This document shows, piece after piece, positions 3,624 through 56,232 of a stretch of 61,575 nt of DNA (the stretch's first letter is position 1; the number at the start of each line of letters is the position of its first letter). Origin of the DNA: a virus (taxonomy: Duplodnaviria; Caudoviricetes); IMG/VR virus record IMGVR_UViG_3300032081_000734, positions 1-61,575 of that record; one strand, given 5' to 3'. The position numbers were made by a program, and so were the translations under genes. The notes beneath the pieces are model-generated. The model made no database searches. It was not told the origin of the DNA and worked only from the letters and a program-made list of their open reading frames with translations.

Positions 3624-3701
3624 TGATGGTTTGTTTGATGTACTTATTATAACGGATGATGGGTGGGAATGGAGGCGTGGCCGCCAGTTCCCCAACTGGT
3701 T
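3624..3701 (-). promoter_or_regulatory. Phage-specific promoter, copy B
   Basis: AACCAGTT-GGGG-AACTGG palindrome about 50 nt upstream of TATAAT (3646-3651). Confidence 0.65.
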
Positions 3702-30000: not shown

Positions 30001-31379
30001 TAGTATGTACCAAAGGGATTCGATTCTGTAAAGTCTACGATATCGTCAGCTAAGTTTTCAATTTCTTCATTTTGAGCATATGCTATTTCAATTCCAGGGT
30101 CTGAATTAAATGTAGAAACTGTATGCGTGGCGTTAGATGTAGCGCCAACAACATCTTCTCCAGCTGTGAACGTACCACTATTTATGTACACGTCTAGGGT
30201 CTTGGCATCTTTATCGTATTTCTTGACTCTTGCTGTAGCACCAGATAGACTTCCAGTAACAATTTCATTACTAATAAAGATTCCAGTTCCAATTGATGGT
30301 GCTGTAGAAATCCCCACAGTTGGTGCCACAGTATAACCAAAACCAGCGTTTCTAATTCTCATTTCAGTAATAGTTCCACCAGTTCCAATTGTAGAAATTA
30401 CTTCAGCAGAAGAACCAATTGAAGTATTTGCTGAACCAGCTAAAGTTACTATAGGAGCATTGACATAAAGTGATCCAGGGTTTGTAATGGTAAGTGTTTG
30501 AACAGATCCATCACCAAGAATTGCTGTTGCAGCTGCTCCAACACCACCGCCACCACTAAACGTTATGGTTGGAACCTCTGTGTATCCTGCACCAGCATTT
30601 GTGATAAGAACTTCCAAGATGGAGTTTGATGTTGTTATAGCAACAGCTGTTGCATTTGTTCCACCTACAGGTGCAGTTGAAATTGCAACCGTTGGTGCTG
30701 ATGTATAGTTATATCCATCATTATTAAGTTGAACTTTTCTAACTGATCCAGTTAACGCAATGCCAGCAGTTGCAGTAGCATTTACACCAGATCCTGTAAG
30801 ATTTATTGTAGTAATATACCCTTCATCAACAACTCTATCATCAATTGCCTCAATACCAGTATCGATAATTTCATCTTCAAGTCTAAGAAGTTCACAACTT
30901 ATCTGATAAACATAATTTTTACCTAATTGGTAAAATGGTTTTTCTTCCTCAACAAATTTAATTTCATAAAGTCTTTCACCAAGAGGGAAGAAAATGACAT
31001 CACCTTCTCTAGGCCTAGAATCTAATATAATTTCACTAGCATCTTGTTCTTTTAAATCTTTTAAAAACTCTACGATATAAGTCTGAAATCTTTCTGCTGA
31101 AATTGTTAATGATATTTCATTTCTAAGTTCAATACCAAATTTTGACATGATATTGACATTATCACCATATCCTTGATAATTATCAAGATATGCTTCGATG
31201 ATAAAATTATCATCTAACTTAGACATTGTAACTTCTTTAGAAATTTTTTCAGTGCCAAGAATTTTTCGTGGGATATAATATACATCTATCCCATATATTT
31301 TTAACTGCTCATTAATCAAATCTTGAAGTAAATACTGCTCTTGACTTGATCCTTGTAGAAAATAAGAATTTCTTGCCAT
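30000..31379 (-). CDS. gp14: Neck protein with inserted GxGY-P repeat region
   Basis: GIDVYYIPR, PREGDVIFFP, PFYQLGK, FTESNPFG. Confidence 0.93.
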   Translation of the reverse strand: MARNSYFLQGSSQEQYLLQDLINEQLKIYGIDVYYIPRKILGTEKISKEVTMSKLDDNFIIEAYLDNYQGYGDNVNIMSKFGIELRNEISLTISAERFQTYIVEFLKDLKEQDASEIILDSRPREGDVIFFPLGERLYEIKFVEEEKPFYQLGKNYVYQISCELLRLEDEIIDTGIEAIDDRVVDEGYITTINLTGSGVNATATAGIALTGSVRKVQLNNDGYNYTSAPTVAISTAPVGGTNATAVAITTSNSILEVLITNAGAGYTEVPTITFSGGGGVGAAATAILGDGSVQTLTITNPGSLYVNAPIVTLAGSANTSIGSSAEVISTIGTGGTITEMRIRNAGFGYTVAPTVGISTAPSIGTGIFISNEIVTGSLSGATARVKKYDKDAKTLDVYINSGTFTAGEDVVGATSNATHTVSTFNSDPGIEIAYAQNEEIENLADDIVDFTESNPFGTY

Positions 31380-38900: not shown

Positions 38901-40390
38901 TCAGCAGCATATCCACTAGCACCACTACTATTTCCTTTGAAATAAGTACCTTTAGAATATTGATATACTTCATTTAGGGTCAATTCAGTGTAAGTCTGAA
39001 TATCAAATAGTCTTAATTCCCAATTAGTAGCATCACTTGAATATGAATTTCTAGGGGCAAATGAGTATATTCTGGCTTCACCAACTTTTTCACCAGTGCC
39101 AGCAGTAGTACTATTTCTTCTTTGATCATAAAGATCAATTACATGAGTGGAATCCTTATCAAGCCCAATTACTGGTGTACCATGTACATTTTCCACCATT
39201 AAAACTGAACCAAGATCAAATGCAACTAGAGAATTATCAACTCTCTTAGTTGTTCGTGGTTTTGGAATATCAACTACTCTTGACCCTGATATATCAATAT
39301 CATATCCATTCACATATGCCTTACCAGGACCCACTGTAAGGCACATTAAATCGTCTGTAGGTACATTTCCACTCCTAGTAGTCTGACTGCGCTCATAGAT
39401 ACCATCATTACCCTGCTCATCGTTTAGACACTCATCCATAGTGAGGTCCATAGGGACTACAGTGTAATCACCAGATTCCTCATATGTTCTCTGTGCAAAA
39501 TAATCTCTAATTTGATTATATTGAGTTTTTTGTTCTGCCTTATCAGTTTCACCGTCATTAAGTCTTAGAATTTCTACAAATTCTTTATCATCCTCATCAG
39601 TTACTAATTTTTTAGTAAGTTGTAATTGGAACTTGAATCTATCTGCTCCAGGAGCTGAGAAATTATTAAATCCAGCGGCATTATCAAATAATTTTGTATT
39701 CTCATTTGAGTTTACAGTTGTCTCAATAATGTCTAGACCAACTCTATATGTTGGATTGTTGGTATATTGATCTAGTATAATAGTTTGTGCTAATACATTT
39801 ACAAAGAATCCACGAACAAAGTAAATACCATCAGCTATGGAAATGGCTGATCCAATAGCAGTGGCATCCTTTGCAACAACCTGAGCAAATGCGGAACCCT
39901 GGAAAATAGTTGTATTTCCATAAGTTACATCATCTTCTGCAAGAAGGAGTTCACTTTCAGTAAATGTTGAAAATTCACCATCTTCACTAGAGTTTAAATA
40001 CTTGACATATATTGTAAGTTGATCATCATCTGAATCATCTGCAAGTAGTACATTTACAACAGATGCAGTTACTCTTGAAGTTTGTCCTAAAATTTCCGTA
40101 CCAATAAAATTTTGGGCATATGCTTCAACGGAAACACCAAGATACTCTGGATTAATCTTTACGGAATAATATTCACTATCATATGTAATTCCACCAGGAA
40201 TTACAACAGAACCATCCTTGAAGAAATGATCTCCAAATTTTTCAATTTGATTTTGAAGAATAGACTGAGCATTATTTAACTCTCGGGCTTGAACTGGAAA
40301 CCCTGGCTTAAACAGAACCTTATAGAAATTGTCGTTTTCGTTAAAATCGTCAAAATATGGGGTCGTGTTTAGATTTGTCTTTTGTGCCAT
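32960..40390 (-). CDS. Large virion structural protein (DUF4815 / VrlC-like)
   Basis: PYFDDF...VLFKPG.PVQAREL, RTYEESGDY, DPLAQSF, GSLYKSQN; follows gp8. Confidence 0.88.
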   Translation of the reverse strand: MAQKTNLNTTPYFDDFNENDNFYKVLFKPGFPVQARELNNAQSILQNQIEKFGDHFFKDGSVVIPGGITYDSEYYSVKINPEYLGVSVEAYAQNFIGTEILGQTSRVTASVVNVLLADDSDDDQLTIYVKYLNSSEDGEFSTFTESELLLAEDDVTYGNTTIFQGSAFAQVVAKDATAIGSAISIADGIYFVRGFFVNVLAQTIILDQYTNNPTYRVGLDIIETTVNSNENTKLFDNAAGFNNFSAPGADRFKFQLQLTKKLVTDEDDKEFVEILRLNDGETDKAEQKTQYNQIRDYFAQRTYEESGDYTVVPMDLTMDECLNDEQGNDGIYERSQTTRSGNVPTDDLMCLTVGPGKAYVNGYDIDISGSRVVDIPKPRTTKRVDNSLVAFDLGSVLMVENVHGTPVIGLDKDSTHVIDLYDQRRNSTTAGTGEKVGEARIYSFAPRNSYSSDATNWELRLFDIQTYTELTLNEVYQYSKGTYFKGNSSGASGYAAEAWTSGDKVKLHQTSGTFAEGETISIDGTNEFPRTIKDMIVYDINSVKSVYQDASTLGLTADFVADTLQRGRVAPRFTRRDTVQITSGGTVTSPGNKFTGIATNSIIRYQNPEYDNVVFNRVSAVAADGDSMTIVAVPTVAGVVTGTLPSGTIETGFRIGQTRFEQGDNGGSLFLPLDQANIASVDISGSNLTIYDQILAQSTNAQGEMSINISNVGVTSSFFDAFDGERYVITYSDGSTERLRSEQFTLNSDGTEISFSGLKRSESNVTVLVTAKKRGLQSKLKQWSRSTKLTVDKSKLRSSGISTGTVNGMNHNAFYGLRVEDEEISLNYPDVAEILAVYESKTSEAPVLDALTFETGLALDTNSILGEYILGPDNNAVAQIVTRSSPTKVEIVYLNDDRFSVGETLTFQESKIEGTIQAIIEGRYVDITEQYILDDGQRPDFSDYSRLVRVENKVPTKQLLVIFNHYVIPDSDDGDAFTVLSYGADRFKNDIPDIFDPNNFNQFSFARASDTLDFRPRVAPFGTEAGKSPFDYDSRDFSVTGSSSPLIPKDSESSFLSYDFYLGRMDRILLTPEGEIEVVEGVPSEDPQVPSVVEDSMTLATLESPPYVYNVESTRLTLIDNKRFTMRDIGALQDRIENLEDTVSLSILENDTRSLEITDADGLSRFKTGFFADDFTNNDLFDSELTTMVVDPGIEQLSCEASQITLTPQLQYRTQDDVNTLDLSSNDPLLDTNCQKTGNVVSLRYEEIEYLKQAYATRVENVNPFSIIDYVGTILLQPAQDTWTETKVSNKKRIQRQFKTLNTKSQNVVEKFRVGKPKNGPSSMKTTTKKSTKVDTSVSTSITDVSTKIDSKTTKAKYMRERNVSFFADGLKPFTRYYGFYDGSRKVRLLPKLVEIKNVQGSFQVGEIVEIWNRKAQRYVRDGRFSNIAVDDPKTKKFKRARRTAVCRLARPNHKSGRITSPSDVYTFNPYNRGQDISRLTSYNSSSTFLNLDILGMSRKAQGKFFGNFWSNYVIIGRKSGAVATVSRKRLMTDGIGSLYGNIAFAGPKDVNARFKTGTKVFKLTNDSKDTVALPGQIKHSDAEAPFTSSGTITRTTLTTTIKKLVTTTKNAVTTVTKTNVFRMQRLPPPQIIVRREIVERTRVIEPRIIRETRVLRERVVVRPVPRRDPLAQSFTTDKKGAFISSVDIYMATKDRRAPLTVELRTIQLGLPTLQLVSQEAQVVLQPSQINISDDASVATRVTFSAPIPVEPETEYCIVLLAPTSIKYNAWIAKLGEKTVNTAELSGPESQQYTRQYGSGSLYKSQNGSIWTPCQFEDMKFRVNKCRFLVDNGTVTFHNPDIDRDGDQLPDMPEDPIKSLPRQLDVGITTVLTQGMKDVLQIGRKVGTGSLVTGVIGNVGGTIQSLKANLPGIGYSDGTYSNVNFFSLSGDGSGATGIVTIANGVLSSASIANTGTGYIAGESLGITTADVTKGTGAQISISAIDGVDTLYLTNVRGEHLVVDDPLVYYDDSGNAQTLNTGVTTAVRTSIVSDELHSGNVIEVLHPNHALKDTRNVVDIYNVDPTRIPSELNVDINATVTSIGVADTSPYGTFQGITTSAGYILVDNEVMYYNSIGNGTLGIATRGAEGTTAVRHAAGDEVYPYEFNDISLTQINKVHNIPSAVVFQANKTIDTYYIEIDRGNRRDGPNMLNFASEFIAGGDEVFASGNIQYDRLNCRLDIVTPKKTKIETRVRTISGTSAGGNEASFVDQGFLSTEPNATLLFGQPQMVCSKVNEEANVTGLPRNKSFTVEVDLQSTDSNYSPFIYLNNCSIDFDRSRVDNPISDYTTDSRVNSIQDDPHAAIYVSDRIDLKNPATSLKLFTAAYVDPTADIRALFRTFPVDSGNTNPSFVLFPGFDNLTDTDGDNFGDQVIDPSKNSGKPDQQVISVTVDEMREYQFSIDELPPFTAYQIKIVFSGTNECLAPRMNDLRTIALA

Positions 40391-41997: not shown

Positions 41998-44900
41998 TTA
42001 TAGGAAGATAATTTTACTTAGACTACCAGTGTTTCTAAGTCCCAATCCACGTCTTGATATTGAAGAGAAAGTTGTTAACCCAACATCAACAGTATTTCCG
42101 CTTACGGAAATTGAAATTGGAGTATCTCCTCTAGTAAATCCAGAGAGTTTACCCCAAGAGAATTCACCAATATTTGCACCAAAGGTTTGAGCAATTGCTA
42201 TAACGTTTGTGTCAGATTTAATATTACAAGTAATAATACCTGTATTACCTTCAATGTTAAATGCGTTTACTGTATAGATGTTATCTAACAGATTTGTTCC
42301 GATTCCAACTATATCAGAATCATCCACATTAACTGATGTAACTCCAGATCCAGTAACAGTACCCTTAACAAAAATTGGATAACCTTCTAGTAAAGTTGGC
42401 AGTAAAGATACAGGGCCAGAATCATTCAAATCAACTTGAAGTTTAAGTGCAAGAGGATGACCACCAGTTCCAGTTGTTGTACCGATTCCAGTAATAATGC
42501 CTGCGTAACCAAGAATGATATCTGAATTGCTAATAGATTCAGTTTCAGAAGCAGGGAATTCTACAATTGCTTTTGGTGGATTAGTAGGATCATAACCTAA
42601 TCCCTCATTAGTGAGTGTTACTGAAGTTAATATGCCACCTGATGCACTGCCAGTTGCAATTGCAGTAGTTCCAACTCCAATAATTCCATATTTTGAATTG
42701 TCAACTTTTGAAGGATTTGCAATAGAAACTTCGACAGGTCCATCAGCATATCCAGAACCAGCACTTGCAATAGTTAATGATGTAATTGTTCCACCAACTG
42801 ATACTGATGCTGTAACTGCGGCCGCAACGGGATCGTTATATTTAACAATAAGACCATCTGCAACAACTAGACCAGTGTTTCCTTCATCTTGCTCATATCT
42901 AAAGAGATCTGCACTCTCAAGGAATATTTCAGAGTCAGTTACACTAAAGTCTCTAATGACTTTACTGGTTGGCATGATTTGTGCTTCAAGTGTTTCTCTG
43001 ATTTTTGGTTGATTTTGTTCAGAGATGATGATATCTTTCTTCTGTCTGGTAAAGGAGATTGGTCTGAAGATGTTTGCATCGATACCTTGTCCTCTATAGA
43101 CATTTGTTTCAATGTCAGTAGAGTCCTTAATAGAGAAGATTGTTCTTTCATTCTGAGTAGTGGTTTCTGTTCCATCAAATTTCCTGAGTTGAACTTGATC
43201 TCCAGGTTTTACAGTCTCAAATACTGTAACAATGAAACTATCAACGCCTCTAGTTCCTCTATAGAAATAGATGGAAATTACATCAGATGGGCCTGGTGGT
43301 GAGGTGAAGTTGAAGTTGAAACTTGTACCACCTTCAAAGAAGTAATCCTTTTTGGGCACCTGAACAACACCGTTAACAAAGATCAAGAGAACAGAATCCA
43401 AGTCAATCTCAGCTGATCTTTGGTTTGTAGGATCTGTTTGGAAACTTAGAGGGATGCCATTCAAGTTAAGTGGGAATCTAGTTCTAGTTCCATCTTGAAG
43501 ACTTCTGATTGAGTCAATATAATCAATTTCTCCAAAGTTCCATGCAGAGAAAGTGTCACTAAGAATTTCAAGAACTTCAAAAGTCAATTGTGAATATTCA
43601 GTTCCTACTCCTGCTGCAGTAACAAGTCCAACTGGAGTAAAGACATCACCTCGTTTGAAGGAGAATCCAGGACTGGATAATTCATAGTTAACAATTCCAA
43701 AGAGATCTGTTCCAATTCCAGTAGTAGCAGCAGATCCAACTATACAGTCAACTTTTACACCCAATCCAGTTTCTACTGTAGCTCCAATGCCAGGTCTACT
43801 AACACCTTGAATTGGAAGATCGGAGTATGATGGTGTTTCGATTTGAATTGTTGGATTCGTGTATCCAGATCCCTCACCTTCAATATTGAAAGATAAGACA
43901 CCACCATCGTTTACAGTTGCTACTACTGTTGCAGCAGCGCCAGAATGACCTTCCTCTTCAACTACAACATCTACAGTATTGAAGTAACCAGAACCGAATG
44001 TCAAGTAATTGTATACTGCAACCTCAGCGTCTATACCACCTTTTCTTCTATTTGGAACAAATGTATGTGCAAATCCAACTTTAAAGACATCGACTATAAA
44101 TTGGGTGGGTGATATGATAGTTTCAATTTCATATGGCCCAACTGATTTGACACCAAATACAACACCATGATCATCGTAGATATGATCAATTGTAGAAACT
44201 CCTACATTAGTGATAATTTTATTAGAAGCAGGAAGACCAAAGATTTGGAATTCAGATCCTTGAGTTCCATCTGGGAAAATTGAAGTTGTGATGCCAATTC
44301 TAACCTTACCAGTTCCAGAAACATAATCGTGAGCAATTGTAGAAATACCTACGTTTGTAACGATTGATGTTCCAGAACTTCCAGCATTAACGTTAAAGTA
44401 GAAACCTTGAGTTCCATCTGGGAAGATAGTTGTTGTCACGCCTGCATGAGGAGCTGCACATGAGAATTCAATATCGCGAAGCATTACCAGATCACCATCA
44501 CTTAAACCATGATTATCTGCTGTTAGGATTGTACTAACGCCAGTTGATGCGGTGTAATCAAAGTCGTAGATAGCAATCTCATTACCATATGCAAGACAAG
44601 TCATTGCAATTCCAGAGAGATTAATTATATCCCCAATGGCAAGACCGCTGTGATTTTTCTTAGTAGTAATAGTTGAGAAACCAGTTGTCTTGTCATATTC
44701 AAAGTTTTCGATTGCAAAAGGAATTCCTCTATTATCTGGGAATCTAGTAGTGGTAAATCCAGTATCAACATTACCACCACCAACGTAAGTATGTGCAAAA
44801 CCGACAGGATTTACATTAGTGACGAATGTTGTTGGGCCAACAATTGAATTGACCAAATAACTATCAGCGTATGTTACGCGATTTAAATGTCCACTATGAT

Positions 44901-47900
44901 CAACATATGTGTGAGCAATTGTTGATGGACCTACATTAACTGTCAGTGTTGTTGCTGAAGTTGCAGTAACTTCAAATTCATCAATTACAGTATCTGGGAA
45001 GATAGTTGTAGTGACTCCAGAGTGCTCAGAATCACATGAGAATTCGAGATTTGCCAATCTGACAAAAGATCCAATTCCAATTCCATGAGTTCCCTTTGTA
45101 GTGATAGTACCAACACCGATAGACTCGGTGTAATCAAAACCACTAATACCCCACTGAGTACCAATATCACTTGGGAATCTGTCAGTAGTAACACCAATTT
45201 CTACTGCAGCCTCACTTGTACCAGTTGGAATATGAGGGATAGTGGAAACGCCAACTTGTGTTTCAAATTGAGTTGTGCTATTTCTCTTAGTTACAACATT
45301 AAAGACTCTACCATTTGTTCCATCTGGGAAGAATGTTGTAGTGACACCAGCATGTTCAGATGCACAAGCAAACTCAAATCTTTCAAGTTTGACTTGCATA
45401 CCAGGATTCAATCCATGAACAAGGTTAGTGGTAATCGTCATGATACCAACAACATTGTTATATTCAAATGTGGTAACACCAACTCTCTTATTGTAAGATC
45501 CCGCAGGGCAGATCATCTGCAAACCATCAAACTGAACTCTCATATCCTTATTCAGGTTATGATTGCCAGATGTTGTTACAGTCATGATTCCAGATACATT
45601 ATCATAATCAACAGTAGAAACGCCAACTAGACTGTCATAGCCACTAGTGCAATCAAACTGAATGTTTCTCATGTCTAAGAAATCATTATTAGTAAATCCA
45701 TGAGGCCCAGCAGTAGTCACTGTTCCAATACCACTTGTTCCATCATAGATAAAATCAGTGATGGTTGTATAAGTTCCTACAGTATCAAGACCAACAATAT
45801 TAGTAATAGTGCCACCAGCACCGACCTCAGCAATGACCTTAGCTCCAACTAGAGGTGCTACTCCGATTCCACCAGAAGATGCAACAGAAACAATTACACC
45901 ACCAACTGGCAGTTTGTTTTTAATAGCATCAAGTTCGCTAATATAATCATCACCAGTTATCAGTTTAGTTCCACTGAATACTACTTCTACATCATCTACG
46001 TTAGATACGATTGAATATACATTCAGAGGGTTGTTATCAGTTGACTGACCCTGGTGAACACCATTAAGGAAGAGTAGTCCACTTCCACTAGAAGTATCGA
46101 GACCAACAGGATAATCTCCACCATTAACACCTAGTGCAAACGTTCTACCAATACCAGTGAATTCAGTTGAAATATCATCATAAAGTTCATTCGTGGTGTA
46201 ATCACTTCTTAGATAAACACGCCCATTAAATTCAGATCTAGTAAATGATAGTCCTCTATCATCGGTAACAAAATCGCCACCAGAACCTTTAGGTGTATCA
46301 ACAAAGTGAATATCACTTTCTACAATGTTATATGCTCCTCTGTGAACAATTGCTGTTTGATTGCTTTCGTGAGCAACTTCTGTTGTTCCAACAAATCCTC
46401 TAGCAACATTTACAAGTTGGAAAGTGCCAATACCAGTAATTGGGCCAAGTCCTGTTGTACCAACTCCAACATTCAAAATGTTCATCATCTCATCACCAAT
46501 TTTTAAAATGTAATCGGGAACAAGAGTTGAGATGCCAGATAGTGCAAGGAATGTTCTACCAACAGCAACTGGTTCAATAGTCTCATGTGTGACTAGTGTT
46601 CTAGAAATAGGATCTTGAACAACACCATCGAGAACAATCAATGATTTTTCAAGTTTTTTGGTAGTGTCAATTAGATGACTGTTACCTTCACCAATACCTG
46701 TTGGTGAAATTCCAAGACCTTTTAGAGCAAAGTCTCTCTTGGTAGCAAGTTTAATGTTATTATTATCAATTCTAATTACAAATAGATTCTCTGGTAGAAT
46801 ATTTGTGGTAACTCCAGAAAAGTAAGACTGTCTGCTTGTAGTTGCCGTAGCCACAACAGACATTGTAATACCAATTCCAAGTCTTTCTGAATAATATGTG
46901 CTTCCAATACCAACTGGAACATTATTTGCAACAGTGAGAGATCCTTCACCAATAGCAGTAACAGTTCCAAATCCAGTTTCTGTGACAAGTTCACGAATTG
47001 TATCACCAATCGCAATAACTGAAGTGTTTGCAACTCCAGTGATAACTTTAGTTCCATCAGAATCTCCAAGGAAGAATCTGAATGTGCTTCCAATACTTAC
47101 AATAGTTGCACCAGATCCAACACCAGGTCCAAAGAACTCTTCACCAATAGATATACCTGAACTATTGCTTGCTGAAGAAACAACGTTTGATCCACTTCTA
47201 ATATCACCGATTAAACTTTCACCACCAGCGGTTGTAGATCCAATAGTAATTGATTCTGAATTAATTCCAATGATAGATGATCCAGGTGCATACTTGATAT
47301 CCTGGCCATTATTCATGAAATGACTTTCTAGGAAAATGTTTCCTGTTGTCTGATCAAATACTGAACTATTTGAAGGATTAAATCTTCTTGCAAAAATCGG
47401 ATAACCTTCATATTCTAAAGTGAAACTAGTTCTGTCTTGTGGAGTGTATTTTGCCTGTATAACAAGCTCAATAGCAGTTCCAAATCCAAATTCCTCAATT
47501 TGGTTAATGTTTGTATCTAGATCGCTATAAACAATCTCACTAAATTCTTCAATTCTGATTTCATCACCAATATATTTTGCATCAGGTAGGAAAATCAACT
47601 CACAGAAAACTCCATTATATTGAGCACTAAATGATCCAAGACCAATTGGTGTGTTTATACCTAATTGTGGATACTCAAGAACATAGGTATCTTTTTGAGC
47701 AAACTCCTGAGCAAATAGAACTTGACTTAATGATTCAGTATTTCCACTAGAAACTCTAATGATTGATTTTGAGAAACGATCAATAATTGATGTGATTCCA
47801 ACAACTGTGATACCATAACCAGCATTAGCAGTTTCTTGAATTACATTAGATTCTATTCTTGCTGTTCTTTCTGTACCATTTTGCTGTGCGGGAAGTTTAA

Positions 47901-50900
47901 AGTGTTCTGTTCTCAATCCAACATTGGTGGTTGTGAATCCAACAACATTTGCTTTAATTGTGGCGGTATTTGAACCATCATTATGGAATTCTAATTTTAG
48001 AACATCATTTACTATATCGGCACCAAATGTACCGATAGGTGAGAAACTTAGCAATCTTTCACTACTATCAAATCCATATTGACCAAGATATGCGTTGACC
48101 CCATCATGAAGAACAGTTATTTCTGCATATTGCCTTTCAGAAGTTGTATTATCTATAACTTCAACATATGCAAACATTGAATTAAAATCACTAGTATCAA
48201 ATCCAACAATTTGATCTGTAGATCCAGCTCCAATTACAGTGGTTACGCCGATGAGTCTTGTATCACCAATAATATTGGTTCCAATACCAGTAGTTCTTGA
48301 ATCAAATAGTTGGCGGAATGCTTTTATATCATAAGTTTTTTCTGAATTTGATGGGGAATATCTTAAAGCGATAGTTCCATCTAACTGAGAAAATTCTGTA
48401 GTAAATTCTCCTAGACTTTCTTGCTCTTCTACAAGATCTACTTGTAGTTGAGGATTAGATTTGATATTTGATTTTTCTAGAAGGAAGGTATTATTATTAC
48501 CATCAGTAATAACAACCAAATCATAAATTTGGAATGATGTCAGATCAACAACGTCAGTTACTACAACTGTAAATCTAGAATATCCTGTTCCAGAAGGGAA
48601 CTTAATAATATCTACGAAATCACCGACTAAGTTTTCTCTATCAATAAATGATTCACTTATATCATCAATACTCAGAACTCTATTAGTCAAACATTCAATA
48701 AAGTTGGTAAGTTTTTTAGTTCCAAACTTGATTGAATTTGTAGCAAGTTGACTAATATTAGTTACATTCTGTTCAACATCAGTATCAACTGCAAAATCAA
48801 AGAAATTGTTAGTTGTTACATCTGATTCAGAGAATAGGTCAATAACTATAGATTGTGTGCCATCACTAATAAAATTAGTAGAAGCAACAGCTACTGAATT
48901 GATTTCAGTGTCAGCGAAATTCTTTGTACCTGAAATATGTGCCAAACGATTGACTGGACCAATTAGATCATTAAATTTAACAGGACTCTTAATACTATAT
49001 GCTAGTTTTTGGTAATAGTCATTATCTGACATGACTTGAGTATCATCATTCAAGAATCCTTTATTTGTCAACCAACCAAAGTTAATTGTAGATCCACATC
49101 CAACATCATAGAAACCATCAAAAGTCTTAGTGTCTACAACTGTTCCTCTAGCTCCAGAGATTGAACCAAGAAGTTTATTTCCAACAACCAGTTTTAAATC
49201 ACCTCTGGTTTTAAGGAATGCTTCATTAGAAGAATCCACTTTCAAAACAGTTTTGGTTGTTTCACCCAAGTCGTTTTCTAATAGTAAAGGTTCATTATCA
49301 ATAAAATCTTTACTAGCGATGTCTACAGAGAATGTTGGGTAAGATTCTTTCTTAACAATAGATCCAAAGTTAACATTAGTAACACCAATTCCAGGAGATC
49401 CTGTTCCTATCCCAGTTAGATCAATTGTAACTTCAGCAGGGTTAACACCAGAATTGAAATTTGTAACTTCAAAGAATCTAAATCCATAATTTTTAGAATT
49501 AAATCCATCGCCTTCTCCAGTATATTCCTGAATACCATCAACAAATACTTCATCACCTGCTTGTAGTGGGCTTGTTGAGAATCCTAATATTGGAGTCACA
49601 ACAGTTAGAGTCATAATTCCAGTTTGAACACTATCAATCTTTGTAATACTTAAACCATTATCATTAATCAAACTAAAGACACTATGACCAACACCCTGAA
49701 GACCACTTCCAGGATTTATGATTTCAACACTACTAATACTTCCAGAGTCTAATTCGGCAATGATACTTACATCATCAACTTGCTCAAGACTTACTGAGTT
49801 TACAAGGACTAAGTTTGGAGCAGTAATAAAGTTTTTCCCACCATATACTGGTATGATACTATTAGTAGTGAAGTAATTTGTAAGTTCATGTCTTGCTGGA
49901 ATGTCAGCTACTGGTTTTAGAGTTTTATCAACAGCAAAGTCAAATCCAGGTTTCTCAACTTCAGTTCTATCCAACAAACCAATATTGGTTGATTTTGGAG
50001 CAATTTCAGCATTAACTCCTAAGGTTGTTGTAATCGTTGATATTCCAGGAAGTTTATCATAATTAGTTCCTTTGTTCAAAATATTGAGTTTGGAAATTCC
50101 ACCGAAGGCAGTAGTTGATTTTGTAGAATATTCTAACTTATCAACTTCAGAAGAACTATAAGAACCTCTTTCAGGTTTTTCCGAAAGACTAACTAAGAAT
50201 GTTGTACCTGTAGTTCCTAATCCAACTACAGTTGTTTTTGTAGAATACTCACTATCAACATATAGAATTCTTGAGAAATTATCTACTGAAATATCAGATT
50301 CTACAAGAGTATTATTTGAAATTTTTTCCAAGTTATAATATAGTTGCTCTGGTAAATACTCGTTAAACTTAATAGTAAAACTAGCCGTTCCCAGTCCAAC
50401 AGTTCCAATTCCAGTCAATTCAAATGCTTCAGAACTTCCAGTTCCAACAAGTTCATTTCTATAATCAGAATCATAGAAAATTCTAAAATTATAACCAGAC
50501 AAGGAACTATCTGACACATCAAATTTGATATTATTATTTCTAGTTACTTTTATTTCTGGGTTTACTTTAGATATTGTATGTGAAGTTCCACCAACTTTGG
50601 TAAATTCAACTAATCTAATAGTTTCTCCCTCAAGGTCAGTTTTAGTTTCTGCAATTGAGAATGCATCTGGATCATCAGAAAATACGAAATACTTTCCAGT
50701 ATCAATACCAGTTGTTTCATTCGCATCATAGAATACCAAATCACCAGTAACTAAACCATGACTCTCAATATTAAATCTTGAACTTGATAAACCAACTGAA
50801 GCTGAACTGAAACCAATGGGATCAATAATAGTATTTTGAGTGAACTCATTAAATAAGACTCTTACTGCTGTTGATGTTCCAATACCAACTGTTAGATTTG

Positions 50901-53900
50901 GTTTTACATTTAATCTAACTTCATCATCTTCTTCAAGACCATGAGAAGATGCTGTCGCTACTCTTGCAGTTAATCTTTCTACTCTACCAGTTACCTGCTT
51001 ATAATCTGATGTGATTTGATATTCATAATCGTCTGTATCACAGGAAACGAAATTAATTTCTGCAGAATCTAAAGTGGTTTTAATACCAATGGTATTTGTA
51101 CCTTTATTGACAGCATATACTAGTTGTTCATTTCCAGATAAAGGAAGAGTAAATGTATACGCAGCACCAACTGTAGATACTGCAATAGCATTACCAGATG
51201 CTGGTTTTATAATCTTAATTGGTTGATTATCTGTAAATGTATGATTCTCAAGATAGATTGAATATGTTGGAACACTTCTAAAAGTTGTTGCACCACTAAC
51301 AACATAATCTGTATCAATTGCTATACCTACAGTAGTTCCAAATCCGACGGCTTCTGTAGGATTAAAATATACAACATCATTTGCTTTAGAATCTAAAGTT
51401 GGACCATTAAAATTAAATATTATTTGACTGGATTTTACTAATATAGAATCTCCAACAGTATGACCAAGCCCAGAGGTTCCTCTTACTGCTCTAATGATGT
51501 TATTAAATGGACCAGAAGTCTTGTAGATATTGAGAACTTTAAAAGTTTCATCATCAATTTGAAGTTCAGAGTTTGGTCTTAAGAACTCTGGGACATTCGA
51601 GACTGGTATATCTGTGGTTATACCACCAACAAATTCTGCTGCTATGTTATCAGTTAAACTAAAGTCGTCAACTGGAACTCCAATATTTACATCACCAGAC
51701 AAATTAGCAACATAAGTTGAGAGACCAGAAATTTTAACAATATCATTCGGTTCCAAATCATGATATGTTGAAATGAATCCAGCTACCTGATTTCCATTAA
51801 GAGTTTCAAATACAAATTTATCATATGTCAAAAATTCCTCTGTTATACTATTAACAAAGTCTCCAGTAACTTCTGAGACTTGAGCGGATGCTGATCCACC
51901 AGTTGTATCACTATTATCAAATACAACACTATCACCAATTTGATAATTTGTTCCTTTCTTTACAATAGAAATACTTTCTATTTGACCTGTTTTTCTAGAC
52001 CTTACAGTAACCCTTTGACTATCAAAATTATAAGGTTGAGTAAAGAAGTTATAATCAGCACCAACTTCTGCAACGTTGTACGGGAAAGTATTTCTAATTA
52101 ATTCATTTCCAACAAAATCAAAATCTTGATTTAGTGATACTGAAGATCCTGCAAGATTTTCTTCAATAACATTGGATCTATATGAATCACCCATGAAATA
52201 TGGGAAACTAGATGCGAGATCTCCAGTTAATGGATCTAGTTCTAACGTTGCAAAGTATGCATAAGTTCCGTTTGGAAACTCTGGTGTTTTGGTAAATCTA
52301 CCATTGTGCTTATCTAAGTCGCCAGAATCATTAAACAAATAATCTTCGACAAATAATCCAGATTCAAATCCACTTGGTCTATTGGTGACTTGATTAATAT
52401 CAATAACATAACCAGATTCAATTAGTTTAATAGCAGAAGTTTGATCACCTGAGTCTGTATAACCAAAACATCCATAAATTGGATTTCCGTCATATGCCCA
52501 TCCAATTAGTGGTGAGTGTTTGGTGTTATCAGTGTCTTGGAAATCTGACTGTAATTTTGGACTATAACCAACAACAGCATATTGTAAGCCGTTTTCACCT
52601 TTATCAATTATAGCTTCACCACCATAATCTTTAAATCTTGCTCTGCTGTTGAGAGTTAGACTTCTAATAGATGAACGTAGAACTGCTCCACTTCCTCTTG
52701 ATACTGGTTCAATTTTAGTGTCTGAGAAAACATAATTGTTACCACTCGCGATAACAACTACATCTGTAACCAGACCATTTGCATCAGTAACTGCTCTCGC
52801 TATACAACCACTTCCAGATTCACTAATTATATTAATATCAGGTGGAGAAAAATAGTTATTTCCTGGTTGTGTTACTAAAATATCAACAATCTTTTTATCA
52901 ACAATTACCGCTCTAAATTCTGCTCCAGATCCTATATCAATACTTACAGATGGCCTATTATGGAAGTTTAGAACTTTAGATCCATATGATGTTCCACCAT
53001 CATATAGAAGGGCATCTTTTATGTTGCCTGTTACAATAGGAGTAGCTGTTACAACACCTACAGTATTTGCAATGGATACTGAAATATCAACTGTGATTTC
53101 TGGATAATTGAATAAGTGAAGACCCGTTCCAATCCCAGTGATTTTTTCAGTCAATCCTCTATCAAAATTAGTATTACTAGTTCCTGCAACACCAGCGTCT
53201 GCAATTCTAAAGTTATGATCATCTATTTTGATAACATAATACTGATTTGATGTTGATAGATCTGGAATCTTATCACCAGTAGCGTTATATGTAATTAACT
53301 CACCTGTAGAATATCCATGATTTTTAAATGTGAATGAATTATTAGATGTTGAGATACCTGTTGTTTGAATAGCAACTTGTCTATTTTCATATCCAACCCC
53401 ACCATCTAGAACATTAACACCAGTTAATTGCTTGGTTGATTGTGCAGTTCTAAATTTATGTAAACCACCACTGTTACTACCAGTACTAAAACCAACAGTG
53501 TTTATACCACTATTAAAATCTGATTCATTTTCATATAATCTAAAAGATACTGGATCAATAACTTCGGTAAAGTACTTACCACCAGTTTCTAGGAAATTAC
53601 CAGTAACACTAGTCAATCCAAATCCAGTGACTCCTAAAGATCTGTTACCATTTGGATCATAGATAATTTCTTGACCATTTCCAAAATTATGATTATTGGT
53701 TGTTCTAATAAAATCACCATAAACGGAGACGCCACCACCATCAGAGGCATTCTTACCATTAAATATAACTTCTCTAAATTGATCAATTACAGTTGGTTCG
53801 ACTAAAGCCCCAGTTCCATTACCACCACTTATACTGATGCTTATGACTCGATCAATATCAAAGTCTTGTGGATCAATAAGAATATCTTTAAGGGTTCCTA

Positions 53901-56232
53901 CTACGGCAACATTTGCCAGAGCAGTATTTCCAGAATTATCCGAATCTGCAATGATACATTTTGGTGGATTGATTACATCATAACCAGATCCAAAATTGAA
54001 AACACTAATTTTTTCAACGGGTCCAAAAAATACTTTGTCGTCAATTTTATAATTTGTAAGTTCTACACCATTTTTAAGAATGCCAGAAGCTCCAGCAATT
54101 GTGCTGGTTTCACTACCAGTATCTAATGATCTTATCAATGAAAACTTCTTTAGAACCTTTTGTGGCGAAATCTTCTTATCAACTTGTTCTGATAATGAGA
54201 AGAAGTGAGATCCAGTATTTCCATCATCAGGAACATTTAGTTTTACATTGATACCAGTATCAATGAATGATCTGGCAACATAAAGTTTTATTTTATTGTT
54301 CGGTGATTGAACTTCAACAAAATAACTTCTACCAAACTCCAAACCTTTAATTGGTTCAGTTGCAGTTCCAGCAGAATAAACTACCTCATCACCAGTTATG
54401 AAAGGAACAGTATTTGAAAATGAAATATTATTATAATCACCAAGTGAATCTTGATCATCAAGAGTTCCAGAAGATACTGATGCCTCAGCAATTGAAACCT
54501 CAATTTGATTTAGATCAATGTTGTAATCAGGTAAAGAGTTTGATGCAACATAAAGAGTACTACGATTTTTTGTAATATATGTGTTCAACACATTTGATAC
54601 TAGAGTATTATTGCCATAACTCAGTTCAATACCAGTGCTAGATGCCTTTTTAATTTGTCTTCTAATATCATATGCTCTACCCTGCACCAAATCGGAAATA
54701 TTACCACCAGATAATACAACTTGCTTATCACCAGTGATTGTAGCTGTGGTTAACCCAACAACAACATCAAGAGTTTCACTATTGACAACTTCTACATTAT
54801 CACCGTCACTAAGGAATGCATCATCTAGACTTCTTTCTAGAACAAATACAGAACCATTAAAACTTTCAACTTTTATACTTGATGCAGTATTATATTTCCA
54901 AGAGTTGAATGAAATCTGTTCGTAAGTTTTATTAGATGGAGGATTTAGAATTTTTGAACCAACTGTTTTGGCTCTATAAACTTCACCTATGTTTGCGTTG
55001 TAGATATCTTCCTGTGGATCAAATTCTGATATTACGCCAGTTAACCTAAGTTCTACTTTTTCATTAGTATCGCTTGTATATCCATATGCAACGTCATTGG
55101 TTCTAATATTTGTAGCAGGTGCAATGTTTGCGGTAACACCAGAACAACCTAAGAATTGATTAATAGTTTTATCAGTGTATGTAATGACATCACTGCCATT
55201 TCTTAACACACCACTCTTAGGGAATCCAATGGTACTATCTACCAAAATTACATCACTTCCAATGAGAGTATCCCCAATGGTTTTTGAGCTTGGTGTTATA
55301 GAGAAGGTGCCATCAAAACCAGGAGATGGTTCTTGATATCTTAGGAATAGAGAAACCGTATAATATGTAACTCCACCTCTAATAGTTTCTTCTACTTCAG
55401 AGATGGGAGCTGAACAACCACCAATATCTGGATTATTGCTATTACTATCCTGGAATAGTGTTTGACCAGATAATTTGGATGGATCTCCACCATCAACCTT
55501 TTCAGTCAATAATACTAGTCTCTTTCTGAATGATGATTCAGACGGTTCAAGTAAAAACTCTGACTGCTTTTTAACTTTTGAGTTTTGGCCAAATAATATT
55601 GATATTAGAGTATTGATTGATTCAGCAGTACCCTTAGACTGATAGAATGACTTTAAATTCTTAACTAAGTTGTTTACATTTACATCTGAATCAAAAGACT
55701 CGTTCTCAAATCCAGGTGCATATAATACTTTTAAGTTTTTAAAATATTCTCGTAAAAATAGTGTACTAAGGTTAGTTACACCAATCCCTGTAGTGTGGTC
55801 TTTGGCGTTGGTATTGTTAAATGTAACCTCACCATCATTATATTCACTGATACCACTAAATCCACGAACACAACCCGTGAATGAATTGGTTGTGATTCCA
55901 CTGTAATAAATTATCTCATCATTAAGTTGAAAGATACCATCTTTATTTGGATATCCTTTTGTAGAGAATACATTGATAACTGTATCACTACTAGAGACAT
56001 CTGATGTCAGAGTAGTGATGCCAGAAACTACTTCTGGAGTTATATTATCAAATTTTAAATATTGATCCAAATTATCAATTAGATCTGCAGGAGAGCCCTG
56101 AGAATCTTGTGATTTATAATACTGTTTTAAAAAATCAACCGCCTTTGGTGTTTCTACTGAAACATAAGATGGTAATTGACTTTCAATAATTTGATTGACT
56201 TTTACTCTTGTATCAAATCCAGTTTCTATCAT
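41998..56232 (-). CDS. gp7: Giant baseplate wedge initiator (gp7-like), 4744 aa
   Basis: Between gp6 and gp8; QLP..V, FLKQYY, FYQSKGT, HSPLIGWAYDGNPIYG and DNDYYQ..AYSIKS motifs. Confidence 0.85.
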   Translation of the reverse strand: MIETGFDTRVKVNQIIESQLPSYVSVETPKAVDFLKQYYKSQDSQGSPADLIDNLDQYLKFDNITPEVVSGITTLTSDVSSSDTVINVFSTKGYPNKDGIFQLNDEIIYYSGITTNSFTGCVRGFSGISEYNDGEVTFNNTNAKDHTTGIGVTNLSTLFLREYFKNLKVLYAPGFENESFDSDVNVNNLVKNLKSFYQSKGTAESINTLISILFGQNSKVKKQSEFLLEPSESSFRKRLVLLTEKVDGGDPSKLSGQTLFQDSNSNNPDIGGCSAPISEVEETIRGGVTYYTVSLFLRYQEPSPGFDGTFSITPSSKTIGDTLIGSDVILVDSTIGFPKSGVLRNGSDVITYTDKTINQFLGCSGVTANIAPATNIRTNDVAYGYTSDTNEKVELRLTGVISEFDPQEDIYNANIGEVYRAKTVGSKILNPPSNKTYEQISFNSWKYNTASSIKVESFNGSVFVLERSLDDAFLSDGDNVEVVNSETLDVVVGLTTATITGDKQVVLSGGNISDLVQGRAYDIRRQIKKASSTGIELSYGNNTLVSNVLNTYITKNRSTLYVASNSLPDYNIDLNQIEVSIAEASVSSGTLDDQDSLGDYNNISFSNTVPFITGDEVVYSAGTATEPIKGLEFGRSYFVEVQSPNNKIKLYVARSFIDTGINVKLNVPDDGNTGSHFFSLSEQVDKKISPQKVLKKFSLIRSLDTGSETSTIAGASGILKNGVELTNYKIDDKVFFGPVEKISVFNFGSGYDVINPPKCIIADSDNSGNTALANVAVVGTLKDILIDPQDFDIDRVISISISGGNGTGALVEPTVIDQFREVIFNGKNASDGGGVSVYGDFIRTTNNHNFGNGQEIIYDPNGNRSLGVTGFGLTSVTGNFLETGGKYFTEVIDPVSFRLYENESDFNSGINTVGFSTGSNSGGLHKFRTAQSTKQLTGVNVLDGGVGYENRQVAIQTTGISTSNNSFTFKNHGYSTGELITYNATGDKIPDLSTSNQYYVIKIDDHNFRIADAGVAGTSNTNFDRGLTEKITGIGTGLHLFNYPEITVDISVSIANTVGVVTATPIVTGNIKDALLYDGGTSYGSKVLNFHNRPSVSIDIGSGAEFRAVIVDKKIVDILVTQPGNNYFSPPDINIISESGSGCIARAVTDANGLVTDVVVIASGNNYVFSDTKIEPVSRGSGAVLRSSIRSLTLNSRARFKDYGGEAIIDKGENGLQYAVVGYSPKLQSDFQDTDNTKHSPLIGWAYDGNPIYGCFGYTDSGDQTSAIKLIESGYVIDINQVTNRPSGFESGLFVEDYLFNDSGDLDKHNGRFTKTPEFPNGTYAYFATLELDPLTGDLASSFPYFMGDSYRSNVIEENLAGSSVSLNQDFDFVGNELIRNTFPYNVAEVGADYNFFTQPYNFDSQRVTVRSRKTGQIESISIVKKGTNYQIGDSVVFDNSDTTGGSASAQVSEVTGDFVNSITEEFLTYDKFVFETLNGNQVAGFISTYHDLEPNDIVKISGLSTYVANLSGDVNIGVPVDDFSLTDNIAAEFVGGITTDIPVSNVPEFLRPNSELQIDDETFKVLNIYKTSGPFNNIIRAVRGTSGLGHTVGDSILVKSSQIIFNFNGPTLDSKANDVVYFNPTEAVGFGTTVGIAIDTDYVVSGATTFRSVPTYSIYLENHTFTDNQPIKIIKPASGNAIAVSTVGAAYTFTLPLSGNEQLVYAVNKGTNTIGIKTTLDSAEINFVSCDTDDYEYQITSDYKQVTGRVERLTARVATASSHGLEEDDEVRLNVKPNLTVGIGTSTAVRVLFNEFTQNTIIDPIGFSSASVGLSSSRFNIESHGLVTGDLVFYDANETTGIDTGKYFVFSDDPDAFSIAETKTDLEGETIRLVEFTKVGGTSHTISKVNPEIKVTRNNNIKFDVSDSSLSGYNFRIFYDSDYRNELVGTGSSEAFELTGIGTVGLGTASFTIKFNEYLPEQLYYNLEKISNNTLVESDISVDNFSRILYVDSEYSTKTTVVGLGTTGTTFLVSLSEKPERGSYSSSEVDKLEYSTKSTTAFGGISKLNILNKGTNYDKLPGISTITTTLGVNAEIAPKSTNIGLLDRTEVEKPGFDFAVDKTLKPVADIPARHELTNYFTTNSIIPVYGGKNFITAPNLVLVNSVSLEQVDDVSIIAELDSGSISSVEIINPGSGLQGVGHSVFSLINDNGLSITKIDSVQTGIMTLTVVTPILGFSTSPLQAGDEVFVDGIQEYTGEGDGFNSKNYGFRFFEVTNFNSGVNPAEVTIDLTGIGTGSPGIGVTNVNFGSIVKKESYPTFSVDIASKDFIDNEPLLLENDLGETTKTVLKVDSSNEAFLKTRGDLKLVVGNKLLGSISGARGTVVDTKTFDGFYDVGCGSTINFGWLTNKGFLNDDTQVMSDNDYYQKLAYSIKSPVKFNDLIGPVNRLAHISGTKNFADTEINSVAVASTNFISDGTQSIVIDLFSESDVTTNNFFDFAVDTDVEQNVTNISQLATNSIKFGTKKLTNFIECLTNRVLSIDDISESFIDRENLVGDFVDIIKFPSGTGYSRFTVVVTDVVDLTSFQIYDLVVITDGNNNTFLLEKSNIKSNPQLQVDLVEEQESLGEFTTEFSQLDGTIALRYSPSNSEKTYDIKAFRQLFDSRTTGIGTNIIGDTRLIGVTTVIGAGSTDQIVGFDTSDFNSMFAYVEVIDNTTSERQYAEITVLHDGVNAYLGQYGFDSSERLLSFSPIGTFGADIVNDVLKLEFHNDGSNTATIKANVVGFTTTNVGLRTEHFKLPAQQNGTERTARIESNVIQETANAGYGITVVGITSIIDRFSKSIIRVSSGNTESLSQVLFAQEFAQKDTYVLEYPQLGINTPIGLGSFSAQYNGVFCELIFLPDAKYIGDEIRIEEFSEIVYSDLDTNINQIEEFGFGTAIELVIQAKYTPQDRTSFTLEYEGYPIFARRFNPSNSSVFDQTTGNIFLESHFMNNGQDIKYAPGSSIIGINSESITIGSTTAGGESLIGDIRSGSNVVSSASNSSGISIGEEFFGPGVGSGATIVSIGSTFRFFLGDSDGTKVITGVANTSVIAIGDTIRELVTETGFGTVTAIGEGSLTVANNVPVGIGSTYYSERLGIGITMSVVATATTSRQSYFSGVTTNILPENLFVIRIDNNNIKLATKRDFALKGLGISPTGIGEGNSHLIDTTKKLEKSLIVLDGVVQDPISRTLVTHETIEPVAVGRTFLALSGISTLVPDYILKIGDEMMNILNVGVGTTGLGPITGIGTFQLVNVARGFVGTTEVAHESNQTAIVHRGAYNIVESDIHFVDTPKGSGGDFVTDDRGLSFTRSEFNGRVYLRSDYTTNELYDDISTEFTGIGRTFALGVNGGDYPVGLDTSSGSGLLFLNGVHQGQSTDNNPLNVYSIVSNVDDVEVVFSGTKLITGDDYISELDAIKNKLPVGGVIVSVASSGGIGVAPLVGAKVIAEVGAGGTITNIVGLDTVGTYTTITDFIYDGTSGIGTVTTAGPHGFTNNDFLDMRNIQFDCTSGYDSLVGVSTVDYDNVSGIMTVTTSGNHNLNKDMRVQFDGLQMICPAGSYNKRVGVTTFEYNNVVGIMTITTNLVHGLNPGMQVKLERFEFACASEHAGVTTTFFPDGTNGRVFNVVTKRNSTTQFETQVGVSTIPHIPTGTSEAAVEIGVTTDRFPSDIGTQWGISGFDYTESIGVGTITTKGTHGIGIGSFVRLANLEFSCDSEHSGVTTTIFPDTVIDEFEVTATSATTLTVNVGPSTIAHTYVDHSGHLNRVTYADSYLVNSIVGPTTFVTNVNPVGFAHTYVGGGNVDTGFTTTRFPDNRGIPFAIENFEYDKTTGFSTITTKKNHSGLAIGDIINLSGIAMTCLAYGNEIAIYDFDYTASTGVSTILTADNHGLSDGDLVMLRDIEFSCAAPHAGVTTTIFPDGTQGFYFNVNAGSSGTSIVTNVGISTIAHDYVSGTGKVRIGITTSIFPDGTQGSEFQIFGLPASNKIITNVGVSTIDHIYDDHGVVFGVKSVGPYEIETIISPTQFIVDVFKVGFAHTFVPNRRKGGIDAEVAVYNYLTFGSGYFNTVDVVVEEEGHSGAAATVVATVNDGGVLSFNIEGEGSGYTNPTIQIETPSYSDLPIQGVSRPGIGATVETGLGVKVDCIVGSAATTGIGTDLFGIVNYELSSPGFSFKRGDVFTPVGLVTAAGVGTEYSQLTFEVLEILSDTFSAWNFGEIDYIDSIRSLQDGTRTRFPLNLNGIPLSFQTDPTNQRSAEIDLDSVLLIFVNGVVQVPKKDYFFEGGTSFNFNFTSPPGPSDVISIYFYRGTRGVDSFIVTVFETVKPGDQVQLRKFDGTETTTQNERTIFSIKDSTDIETNVYRGQGIDANIFRPISFTRQKKDIIISEQNQPKIRETLEAQIMPTSKVIRDFSVTDSEIFLESADLFRYEQDEGNTGLVVADGLIVKYNDPVAAAVTASVSVGGTITSLTIASAGSGYADGPVEVSIANPSKVDNSKYGIIGVGTTAIATGSASGGILTSVTLTNEGLGYDPTNPPKAIVEFPASETESISNSDIILGYAGIITGIGTTTGTGGHPLALKLQVDLNDSGPVSLLPTLLEGYPIFVKGTVTGSGVTSVNVDDSDIVGIGTNLLDNIYTVNAFNIEGNTGIITCNIKSDTNVIAIAQTFGANIGEFSWGKLSGFTRGDTPISISVSGNTVDVGLTTFSSISRRGLGLRNTGSLSKIIFL
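44010..45780 (-). repeat. Six-copy nested domain repeat inside the gp7-like gene
   Basis: Six Y...G..T.TT...HG...C half-repeats and six TT.FP / V....H.Y half-repeats; DNA similarity such as gttccatctgggaa near 44264, 44411 and 45316. Confidence 0.85.

Follow-up and report, generated by a model that had tools for sequence, protein, structure and literature searches.

How can a single protein chain hold six copies of one domain when only three of them are uninterrupted? The question is raised by a 61,575-nucleotide (nt) stretch of viral DNA (Duplodnaviria; Caudoviricetes; IMG/VR record IMGVR_UViG_3300032081_000734, positions 1 to 61,575), referred to here as the window. A minus-strand open reading frame (ORF) at 41998-56232 encodes a giant protein of 4744 amino acids (aa), and the module in question lies entirely within it. 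A first-pass annotation, made from the sequence alone, had described a domain of about 90 aa with three consecutive parts, A, B and C, and had proposed that its six copies are not arranged in tandem but balance like parentheses, in the order A1 A2 [A3 B3 C3] B2 [A4 B4 C4] C2 B1 A5 [A6 B6 C6] B5 C5 C1.

The explanation that we favour, and to which we would give a probability of roughly 80%, is that aa 3490-4060 of the giant protein form a tree of six all-beta copies, grown as entire copies became lodged in other copies at two permissive loops. The first of these loops would follow the invariant Cys of the domain, and the second would follow its G-x-T-T-x-x-F-P strand. Within this explanation, the repeated self-insertion of one domain is well supported by sequence comparison.

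Order of the domain pieces

The starting profile was built from the three uninterrupted copies only, here termed leaves (aa 3584-3681, 3694-3785 and 3885-3980; nt 45483-45191, 45153-44878 and 44578-44293). Along the ORF, this three-leaf profile matched two A parts alone (3490-3531 and 3536-3577) and two full domains (3584-3678 and 3694-3785), followed by a C part alone (3789-3819) and a B part alone (3824-3834; weak, independent E-value (iE) 0.3), and lastly by an A part alone (3840-3880), a full domain (3886-3979) and a B part together with a C part (3980-4022). The profile was iterated on 121 homologues and then cut into part profiles A (columns 1-40), B (43-57) and C (58-91), which rest on 567 contiguous copies from the homologues. 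Six A parts (iE about 7e-14 to 9e-19), five B parts and six C parts (iE 3e-6 to 2e-14) were recovered from the ORF in the order A A [A B C] [A B C] C B A [A B C] B C C. The features of the module are as follows, all on the minus strand.

41998..56232, minus: giant ORF, 4744 aa, baseplate wedge protein, between the phrog_219 and phrog_438 genes (PHROG 2885, E=0)
44053..45765, minus: whole nested module, aa 3490-4060, six copies of about 90 aa, ((leaf leaf)(leaf)) (profile searches)
45649..45762, minus: copy 1 part A, aa 3491-3528, conserved Cys at its end (part-A profile, iE 8e-15)
45508..45627, minus: copy 2 part A, aa 3536-3575 (iE 8e-17)
45223..45483, minus: copy 3, uninterrupted leaf, A 3584-3623, B 3627-3641, C 3645-3670 (profiles)
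45163..45198, minus: copy 2 part B, aa 3679-3690, G-V-T-T-x-x-F-P (visual inspection and DNA repeat D1 at 45168-45197; below the B-profile threshold)
44896..45150, minus: copy 4, uninterrupted leaf, A 3695-3733, B 3737-3748, C 3752-3779 (profiles)
44767..44859, minus: copy 2 part C, aa 3792-3822 (iE 2e-11)
44728..44763, minus: copy 1 part B, aa 3824-3835 (B profile, iE 0.024; D1 reference copy at 44733-44762)
44596..44712, minus: copy 5 part A, aa 3841-3879 (iE 7e-14; contiguous with its own B and C in 7 of 14 aligned relatives)
44311..44577, minus: copy 6, uninterrupted leaf inside copy 5 after the Cys, aa 3886-3974 (profiles; missing in seven loci)
44161..44295, minus: copy 5 parts B (aa 3980-3992) and C (aa 3995-4024) (iE 9e-5 and 1e-10)
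44053..44133, minus: copy 1 part C, aa 4034-4060, closing the outermost domain (C profile iE 3e-6; full profile iE 1e-3)

The sole piece of the annotated scheme to be missed by the part profiles is B2 (aa 3679-3690), which the B profile does not reach at iE 0.05. It is recognisable by visual inspection, and it coincides with the 45168-45197 copy of a DNA repeat family, D1, that covers six of the six B motifs; a seventh D1 match, of 67%, lies inside A1 and is taken for chance. With B2 added, the order becomes A A [ABC] B [ABC] C B A [ABC] B C C. When the complete window was scanned in six frames, six full-length A parts and six C parts were returned, all of them within 44053-45765 and in the frame of the ORF, and an independent search of the record recovered eight of nine expected matches, C1 being the one missed. 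The balanced order proposed by the first-pass annotation is confirmed by the part profiles, the D1 repeat and the six-frame scan. The six-frame scan also gave one extra weak partial A-like match at 50911-50967. Weak A-like matches of the type H-G-L-x-x-x-D-x-V, at 50911-50967 and at aa 1742-1775 (iE 0.0025 and 0.0067), lie far upstream of the module; they could represent distant solitary relatives of part A or be due to chance.

The series of pieces can be read with a simple rule, under which A opens a copy, B marks an open copy once and C closes it. When the 17 detected tokens were shuffled, only one of 1000 shuffles parsed as a nested word without violation. The orphan pieces in the window number exactly three A, three B and three C, and they stand in nested order. 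It follows from this order that copy 1 hosts copies 2 and 5, that copy 2 hosts copies 3 and 4, and that copy 5 hosts copy 6, as had been claimed; the piece boundaries likewise agree with two insertion loops, one after the Cys and one after the F-P motif, and the alignment shows the motif C-x-x-(E/P)-H-(A/S)-G-V-T-T-T-x-F-P-D in all three leaves. Identity among the six copies is 25-51% for the A parts and 16-56% for the C parts, and copy-to-copy similarity in the window does not reveal which copy arose from which.

A very unlikely alternative is that the stretches holding A alone or B and C alone are independent modules, or degenerate half-domains, set in tandem like beads on a line, with the nested appearance a by-product of decay. 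Such a reading could draw on the homologues that do not balance and on the model of the whole segment, both of which are considered below. It is disfavoured by the equal numbers of orphan A, B and C pieces, by their nested order and by the rarity with which shuffled tokens parse.

Tree shapes and contiguous counterparts in relatives

The closest named relatives are the Synechococcus phages S-T4, Sf-CH8 and Sf-CH5, with a module identity of 67-69%. In S-T4 and Sf-CH8 the series of pieces is nearly that of the window (B2 of S-T4 escaped the leaf-only profile, as did C2 and C1 of Sf-CH8). Other arrangements are found in other phages, and the nested domain also occurs in proteins that are annotated as tail fibres: the S-8S55 tail fibre reads A [leaf] BC and then a leaf, and the S-CAM9 tail fibre carries the unit A [leaf] BC twice. 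S-SCSM1 reads A A [leaf] BC BC. The giant protein of S-CAM7 runs through seven A pieces to a leaf and then through the balancing closers. With full-profile tokens, an exact parse is obtained for 50 of the 121 homologues, one of which is the complete S-CAM7 protein (P0009), with a depth of 8; tandem decay does not predict runs such as the seven A pieces and then seven closers of this protein. With three-part tokens, 228 of 267 proteins hold at least two A pieces; 75 of these parse exactly, 71 of the 75 without a B violation, and the numbers of A and C pieces are equal in 79 and differ by one in 60. Unclosed parses give nominal depths of at least 10, which are not relied on.

The first-pass annotation had suggested that tree topology be compared among orthologues. 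In the bracket notation used above, the shapes found were ((OO)(O)), ((OO)O), ((((OO)O)O)(O)), ((((OO)(O))(O))(O)), ((O)(O))(O), (O(O))(O) and (OO), and they differ by whole domains present or absent at the two loops. As far as names show, the strict domain family appears to be small and cyanophage-centred, because a three-sequence profile found only 281 cluster representatives at E<=0.001 among 1.84 billion.

The gain and loss of domains can be followed at single sites in an alignment of 15 sequences (the window and 14 relatives). Seven of the 14 relatives (L009, L010, L011, L013, L014, L021 and L022) lack precisely copy 6, at the site between the A5 Cys and B5. At these seven loci the A5 Cys is followed within a few residues by B5 and C5, and copy 5 is an ordinary contiguous domain, 83-90% identical to the split pieces of the window over A5 and 69-89% over B5C5. 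That split pieces are orthologous to contiguous domains in this way is a further point against beads in tandem. Elsewhere in the alignment, L019 carries a divergent domain of the same family at the copy 6 site, L016 and L017 have additional nested copies between copy 3 and B2, and in L021 a third site, within part A of copy 4, holds a pair of variant domains. The divergent variants in L019 and L021 indicate that the family extends beyond the strict profile and that its insertion sites number three or more. In the variant (within L019 601-2997 and L021 601-3054), a motif of the Y-P-R-x-x-D-P type replaces the G-x-T-T-x-x-F-P strand. Across the homologues, the linker leading from the host Cys into the child is often C-P-x-Y-G-N or similar (C-L-A-Y-G-N in copy 5 of the window), and this stretch could be a conserved entry linker for insertions at the first loop.

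Whether the pieces that nesting assigns to one another really belong together was addressed by a pairing test. Each unique split copy was matched with the contiguous copy, from any protein, that has the most similar A part, and the C part of that contiguous copy was compared with the nested partner C and with whatever other split C pieces the protein contained. Of 766 copies, 39 had no second split copy in their protein and were set aside, and 727 were kept. Where the A parts were at least 70% identical (n=46), identity was 68% to the nested C and 34% to the other C pieces, and the nested partner was best in 85% of cases. At 80% identity or more (n=27), the values were 75% and 31%, with the nested partner best in 93%. 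The 48 informative cases fall into 20 sequence clusters, at differing places in differing protein families; the few failures carry truncated A matches, which fits the third insertion site. This outcome is what would be expected for two halves of one domain, and it would be unexpected for independent modules. It bears equally on the idea that the pieces do complement one another, only in an order other than last opened, first closed. Piece counts alone are compatible with such crossed pairing, which we nevertheless consider extremely improbable: among informative cases the C piece that matches best is the nested one 85-93% of the time, the pairing that nesting gives for copy 5 is seen in contiguous orthologues, and the chain would have to knot.

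Not all parts of the module vary to the same extent. A5, copy 6 and B5C5 are 82-100% identical to the window in orthologues of the S-T4-like and L016 types, and leaves 3 and 4 only 49-65%. Taken as a whole, the branch of copies 2, 3 and 4 shows 49-59% identity in distant orthologues. Copy 6 is 100% identical between the window and both L016 and L017, and the branch made up of copies 5 and 6 (44161-44712) is likewise 82-100% identical to L016, L017, L012 and L015. These values would point to either a recent exchange of this branch between phages or a much stronger constraint upon it.

Fold and the proposed joining of split copies

An AlphaFold2 model of leaf copy 6, made from 50 contiguous-copy sequences, is all-beta with nine strands (predicted local distance difference test score (pLDDT) 91.5, predicted template modelling score (pTM) 0.80). 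Searched with Foldseek against predicted viral structures, the leaf model matches cyanophage fibre and baseplate proteins at query-based TM-scores (TMq) of 0.82-0.91. Against the PDB nothing was found at E<=0.001, and the best fold likenesses are to chains of the P22 coat protein, UBA6/UBA1 and the phi92 endosialidase (TMq about 0.49-0.57, probability 0.95-0.99). A sequence search of the module against solved structures gave a best E of 0.77, and phmmer with the whole protein found no match at E<=0.01 among the PDB sequences, T4 baseplate proteins included.

The domain bears a weak likeness to one known from ubiquitin-activating enzymes. E1_FCCH (PF16190), the first catalytic cysteine half-domain, matches six of 50 leaves at E<=1 (best 1.2e-4), over part A. 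The gathering cut-off of 29.5 bits is not reached, leaf 6 scoring 15.7 bits (E 0.016), and on the whole protein E1_FCCH gives no match at E<=0.1. In the ESM Atlas, the closest named cluster is a viral cluster named for E1_FCCH (score 0.91).

Conservation was compared between orphan and leaf pieces. One Cys per domain is essentially invariant (91% Cys, the rest being alignment gaps). Depending on which set is taken, 84-97% of copies have the part C His and 67-76% the part A His. Orphan pieces are conserved as well as leaves (Cys 91% in both; C-part His 96% in orphans vs 84% in leaves), which again speaks against degenerate half-domains in tandem. The first-pass annotation had suggested that the appendage might be metal-stabilized through Cys and His. 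The form of this idea in which a Cys1-His3 site uses the His that follows the Cys, as in the leaves of the window, is weakened because, across the wider family, no more than 88 of 696 leaves have that His. An invariant lone Cys in a protein of the virion would fit a ligand role.

Several results weigh against the nested reading. Automatic tokens fail to balance in 153 of the 228 homologues parsed in three parts and in 71 of the 121 parsed with the full profile; these failures probably reflect metagenomic proteins that are cut short, weak pieces that escaped detection and the third insertion site (the one within part A), and many of the proteins are visibly truncated, P0122 and P0123, for instance, ending in mid-nest. 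Over all 727 split copies the pairing difference is small (40% vs 36%), and the test has power for only the 46 that have a close contiguous relative. The AlphaFold2 model of the 600-residue module (15 sequences) reaches only moderate confidence, with a pLDDT of 62.7 and a pTM of 0.43; it is all-beta, with the same strand pattern in the split pieces as in the leaves, and Foldseek against the PDB gave TM-scores of 0.13 at most, which are meaningless for a multi-domain model. A picture in which variable tips bind the host is, in its simple form, unsupported because variation follows branches and not tips. The unbalanced homologues and the 600-residue model are the two observations that would favour beads in tandem.

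By strong inference from homology, the separated pieces of each split copy would fold together in the manner of a leaf copy. They might instead be complemented in trans, an orphan A pairing with the orphan B and C of a neighbouring subunit, and domain swapping of this kind would stitch copies together round the baseplate. Baseplate wedge proteins are present in several copies per baseplate in T4, and sequence evidence alone does not separate pairing within a chain from pairing between chains. A complex prediction for part A of copy 5 (46 aa) with its parts B and C (52 aa), from 15-row alignments, scored 0.28 in both of two runs without controls, against a mark of 0.32, and weighs on neither side. 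We think pairing in trans improbable: the presence and absence of inserts among close orthologues is explained most simply if the host domain closes around its insert, and the solved analogue Si3, described below, closes within a single chain (PMC10895346).

If each copy does close within its own chain, the chain would pass through A1, A2, leaf 3, B2, leaf 4, C2, B1, A5, leaf 6, B5 and C5, and C1. It would thus run outward via the A pieces, turn in a leaf and come back via B and C, and every child would be fixed to its parent by two strands where the chain crosses. Both ends of the module would meet at one point of the baseplate protein. The outcome would be a compact, stiff and forked side arm with copies 3, 4 and 6 as its three tip domains, which could be enlarged or trimmed without disturbing the flanking parts of the baseplate. 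A family that acts as both host and guest could be stacked without limit because insertion in a loop requires that a domain's own ends lie close together. The first-pass annotation had proposed that self-insertion builds a branched appendage. The insertion stands, upheld by the nested grammar, by presence and absence among orthologues and by the pairing of split with contiguous copies; the branched, multivalent shape that would follow from the tree topology is plausible.

Baseplate setting, precedents and meaning

The giant ORF encodes the baseplate wedge protein of a T4-like Synechococcus phage, closest to S-T4. The PHROG 2885 'baseplate wedge subunit' profile covers residues 2-3002 (E=0, 3195.8 bits), the counterparts in S-T4 and Sf-CH8 carry the annotation 'baseplate wedge subunit', and 74 of the 78 phage records with a match are Synechococcus phages. 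The PHROG 2885 match does not extend to the nested module, whose own region matches three repeat-rich phage families: PHROG 3442 (unknown function), 17885 (tail fiber protein) and 1276 (unknown function). The gene is flanked by ORFs of 661 aa (phrog_219, baseplate wedge) and 520 aa (phrog_438, baseplate wedge), which from T4 gene order we take to be gp6 and gp8, and its slot would then be that of T4 gp7, the baseplate wedge initiator. The giant protein resembles gp7 in this position between two baseplate wedge-family genes, and it differs in showing no sequence match to solved T4 baseplate chains; it is about 4.6 times the length of gp7. The most likely role of the module, and the weakest step of the explanation, would be to present domains that bind the host surface around the edge of the baseplate, a role suggested by the location in a baseplate wedge protein, the occurrence of the same domain in annotated tail fibres and the mosaic variation between phages.

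Further observations were made on the protein and its surroundings. A Pfam scan of the 4744-aa protein matched only YHYH (PF14240, E 6.5e-26; aa 1233-1332, window 52237-52536, minus strand), far upstream, the module region remaining blank; this sole curated Pfam domain of the giant protein is also precomputed for most of its orthologues. Two genes downstream lies a second giant ORF (32960-40390, minus, 2476 aa; PHROG 358, unknown function, E=0), and the six-frame scan of the window found the nested domain to be absent from it. In a 459-aa ORF (30000-31379, minus), the first ~275 residues match head closure Hc2 families, and residues ~192-358 match a module common to phrog_2885 (positions 1077-1147) and phrog_701. 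Just upstream of the baseplate genes is a ferredoxin-type auxiliary metabolic gene (58639-59325, minus; phrog_3704, E 2.5e-113), and purM-like DNA matches in relatives overlap the part of the window that holds it. The 61.5-kb record is a viral fragment with an estimated completeness of 29%.

The closest precedent is Si3 of the cyanobacterial RNA polymerase beta-prime subunit. Its crystal structure is described as a 150-Angstrom arm of eight sandwich-barrel hybrid motifs (SBHMs), SBHM-2 to -5 being discontinuous (PMC10895346). In a 2026 survey of domain insertion covering 2.7 million classified domains, Si3 is given as a six-level recursive architecture and the most complex example, and the words 'phage' and 'viral' are absent from that text (PMC13114784). 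Recursive homotypic insertion, in which copies of one family interrupt each other in a well-nested word, is found both in the window and in its relatives. Si3 is alike in that a small beta domain is inserted several times into other copies of itself, some copies being assembled from distant segments, and in that the whole gives a long arm. It is unlike in its domain family and fold, and in belonging to a cellular enzyme rather than to a virion protein; no RNA polymerase chain is among the 50 Foldseek PDB matches listed for the leaf model. The phage trees also vary widely in shape between close relatives (20 clusters of split copies with a contiguous relative), and the phage family reaches depth 8 in a balanced sequence parse, against the six levels given for Si3 in the survey.

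Other proteins share single features with the module. Part A resembles the first 28 profile positions of E1_FCCH, with its H-G-hydrophobic-x-x-G-D-x-V, and the leaf matches UBA6/UBA1 chains (TMq 0.49-0.55, probability 0.95-0.99, E 0.11-0.20; the output does not give the region aligned). The matches to E1_FCCH lie below the Pfam cut-off and there is no enzymatic context here. FCCH is itself an inserted beta-barrel. Similarly, the phi92 endosialidase and the P22 coat protein are matched at TMq 0.52-0.57 (probability 0.96-0.98, E 0.1-0.2; aligned regions not shown), over what we assume to be their inserted barrels, which the Foldseek output does not show. Those barrels are inserted at a single level into an unrelated host, whereas here host and guest are the same domain. 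A full-text literature search, which did not reach supplements or most subscription journals, found no account of domain nesting in the baseplate or fibre proteins of cyanophages. The principle is known from Si3; what appears to be new here is the uncurated domain family, the virion setting, the greater variation in tree shape and, by sequence parsing, the deeper nesting in relatives.

Very few proteins are known to contain recursive self-insertion, and Si3, the solved example among them, hardly varies in shape. The phage family offers many tree shapes together with many close relatives that lack the inserts, and hence natural pairs of split and contiguous domains in which the evolution and folding of discontinuous domains could be studied. 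For annotation, it means that profile searches with contiguous domains miss or miscount such copies. For phage biology, a baseplate or fibre appendage could be lengthened or branched without moving the ends of the chain, and this may bear on host recognition by abundant marine cyanophages. A bolder extension, which we hold to be doubtful and offer as a tentative idea, is that the barrel is a self-inserting block with which marine T4-like cyanophages grow stiff, branched antennae of at least eight levels on their baseplate and fibre proteins, the varying shape of the tree, and not the tip sequences alone, helping to set which hosts they can attach to.

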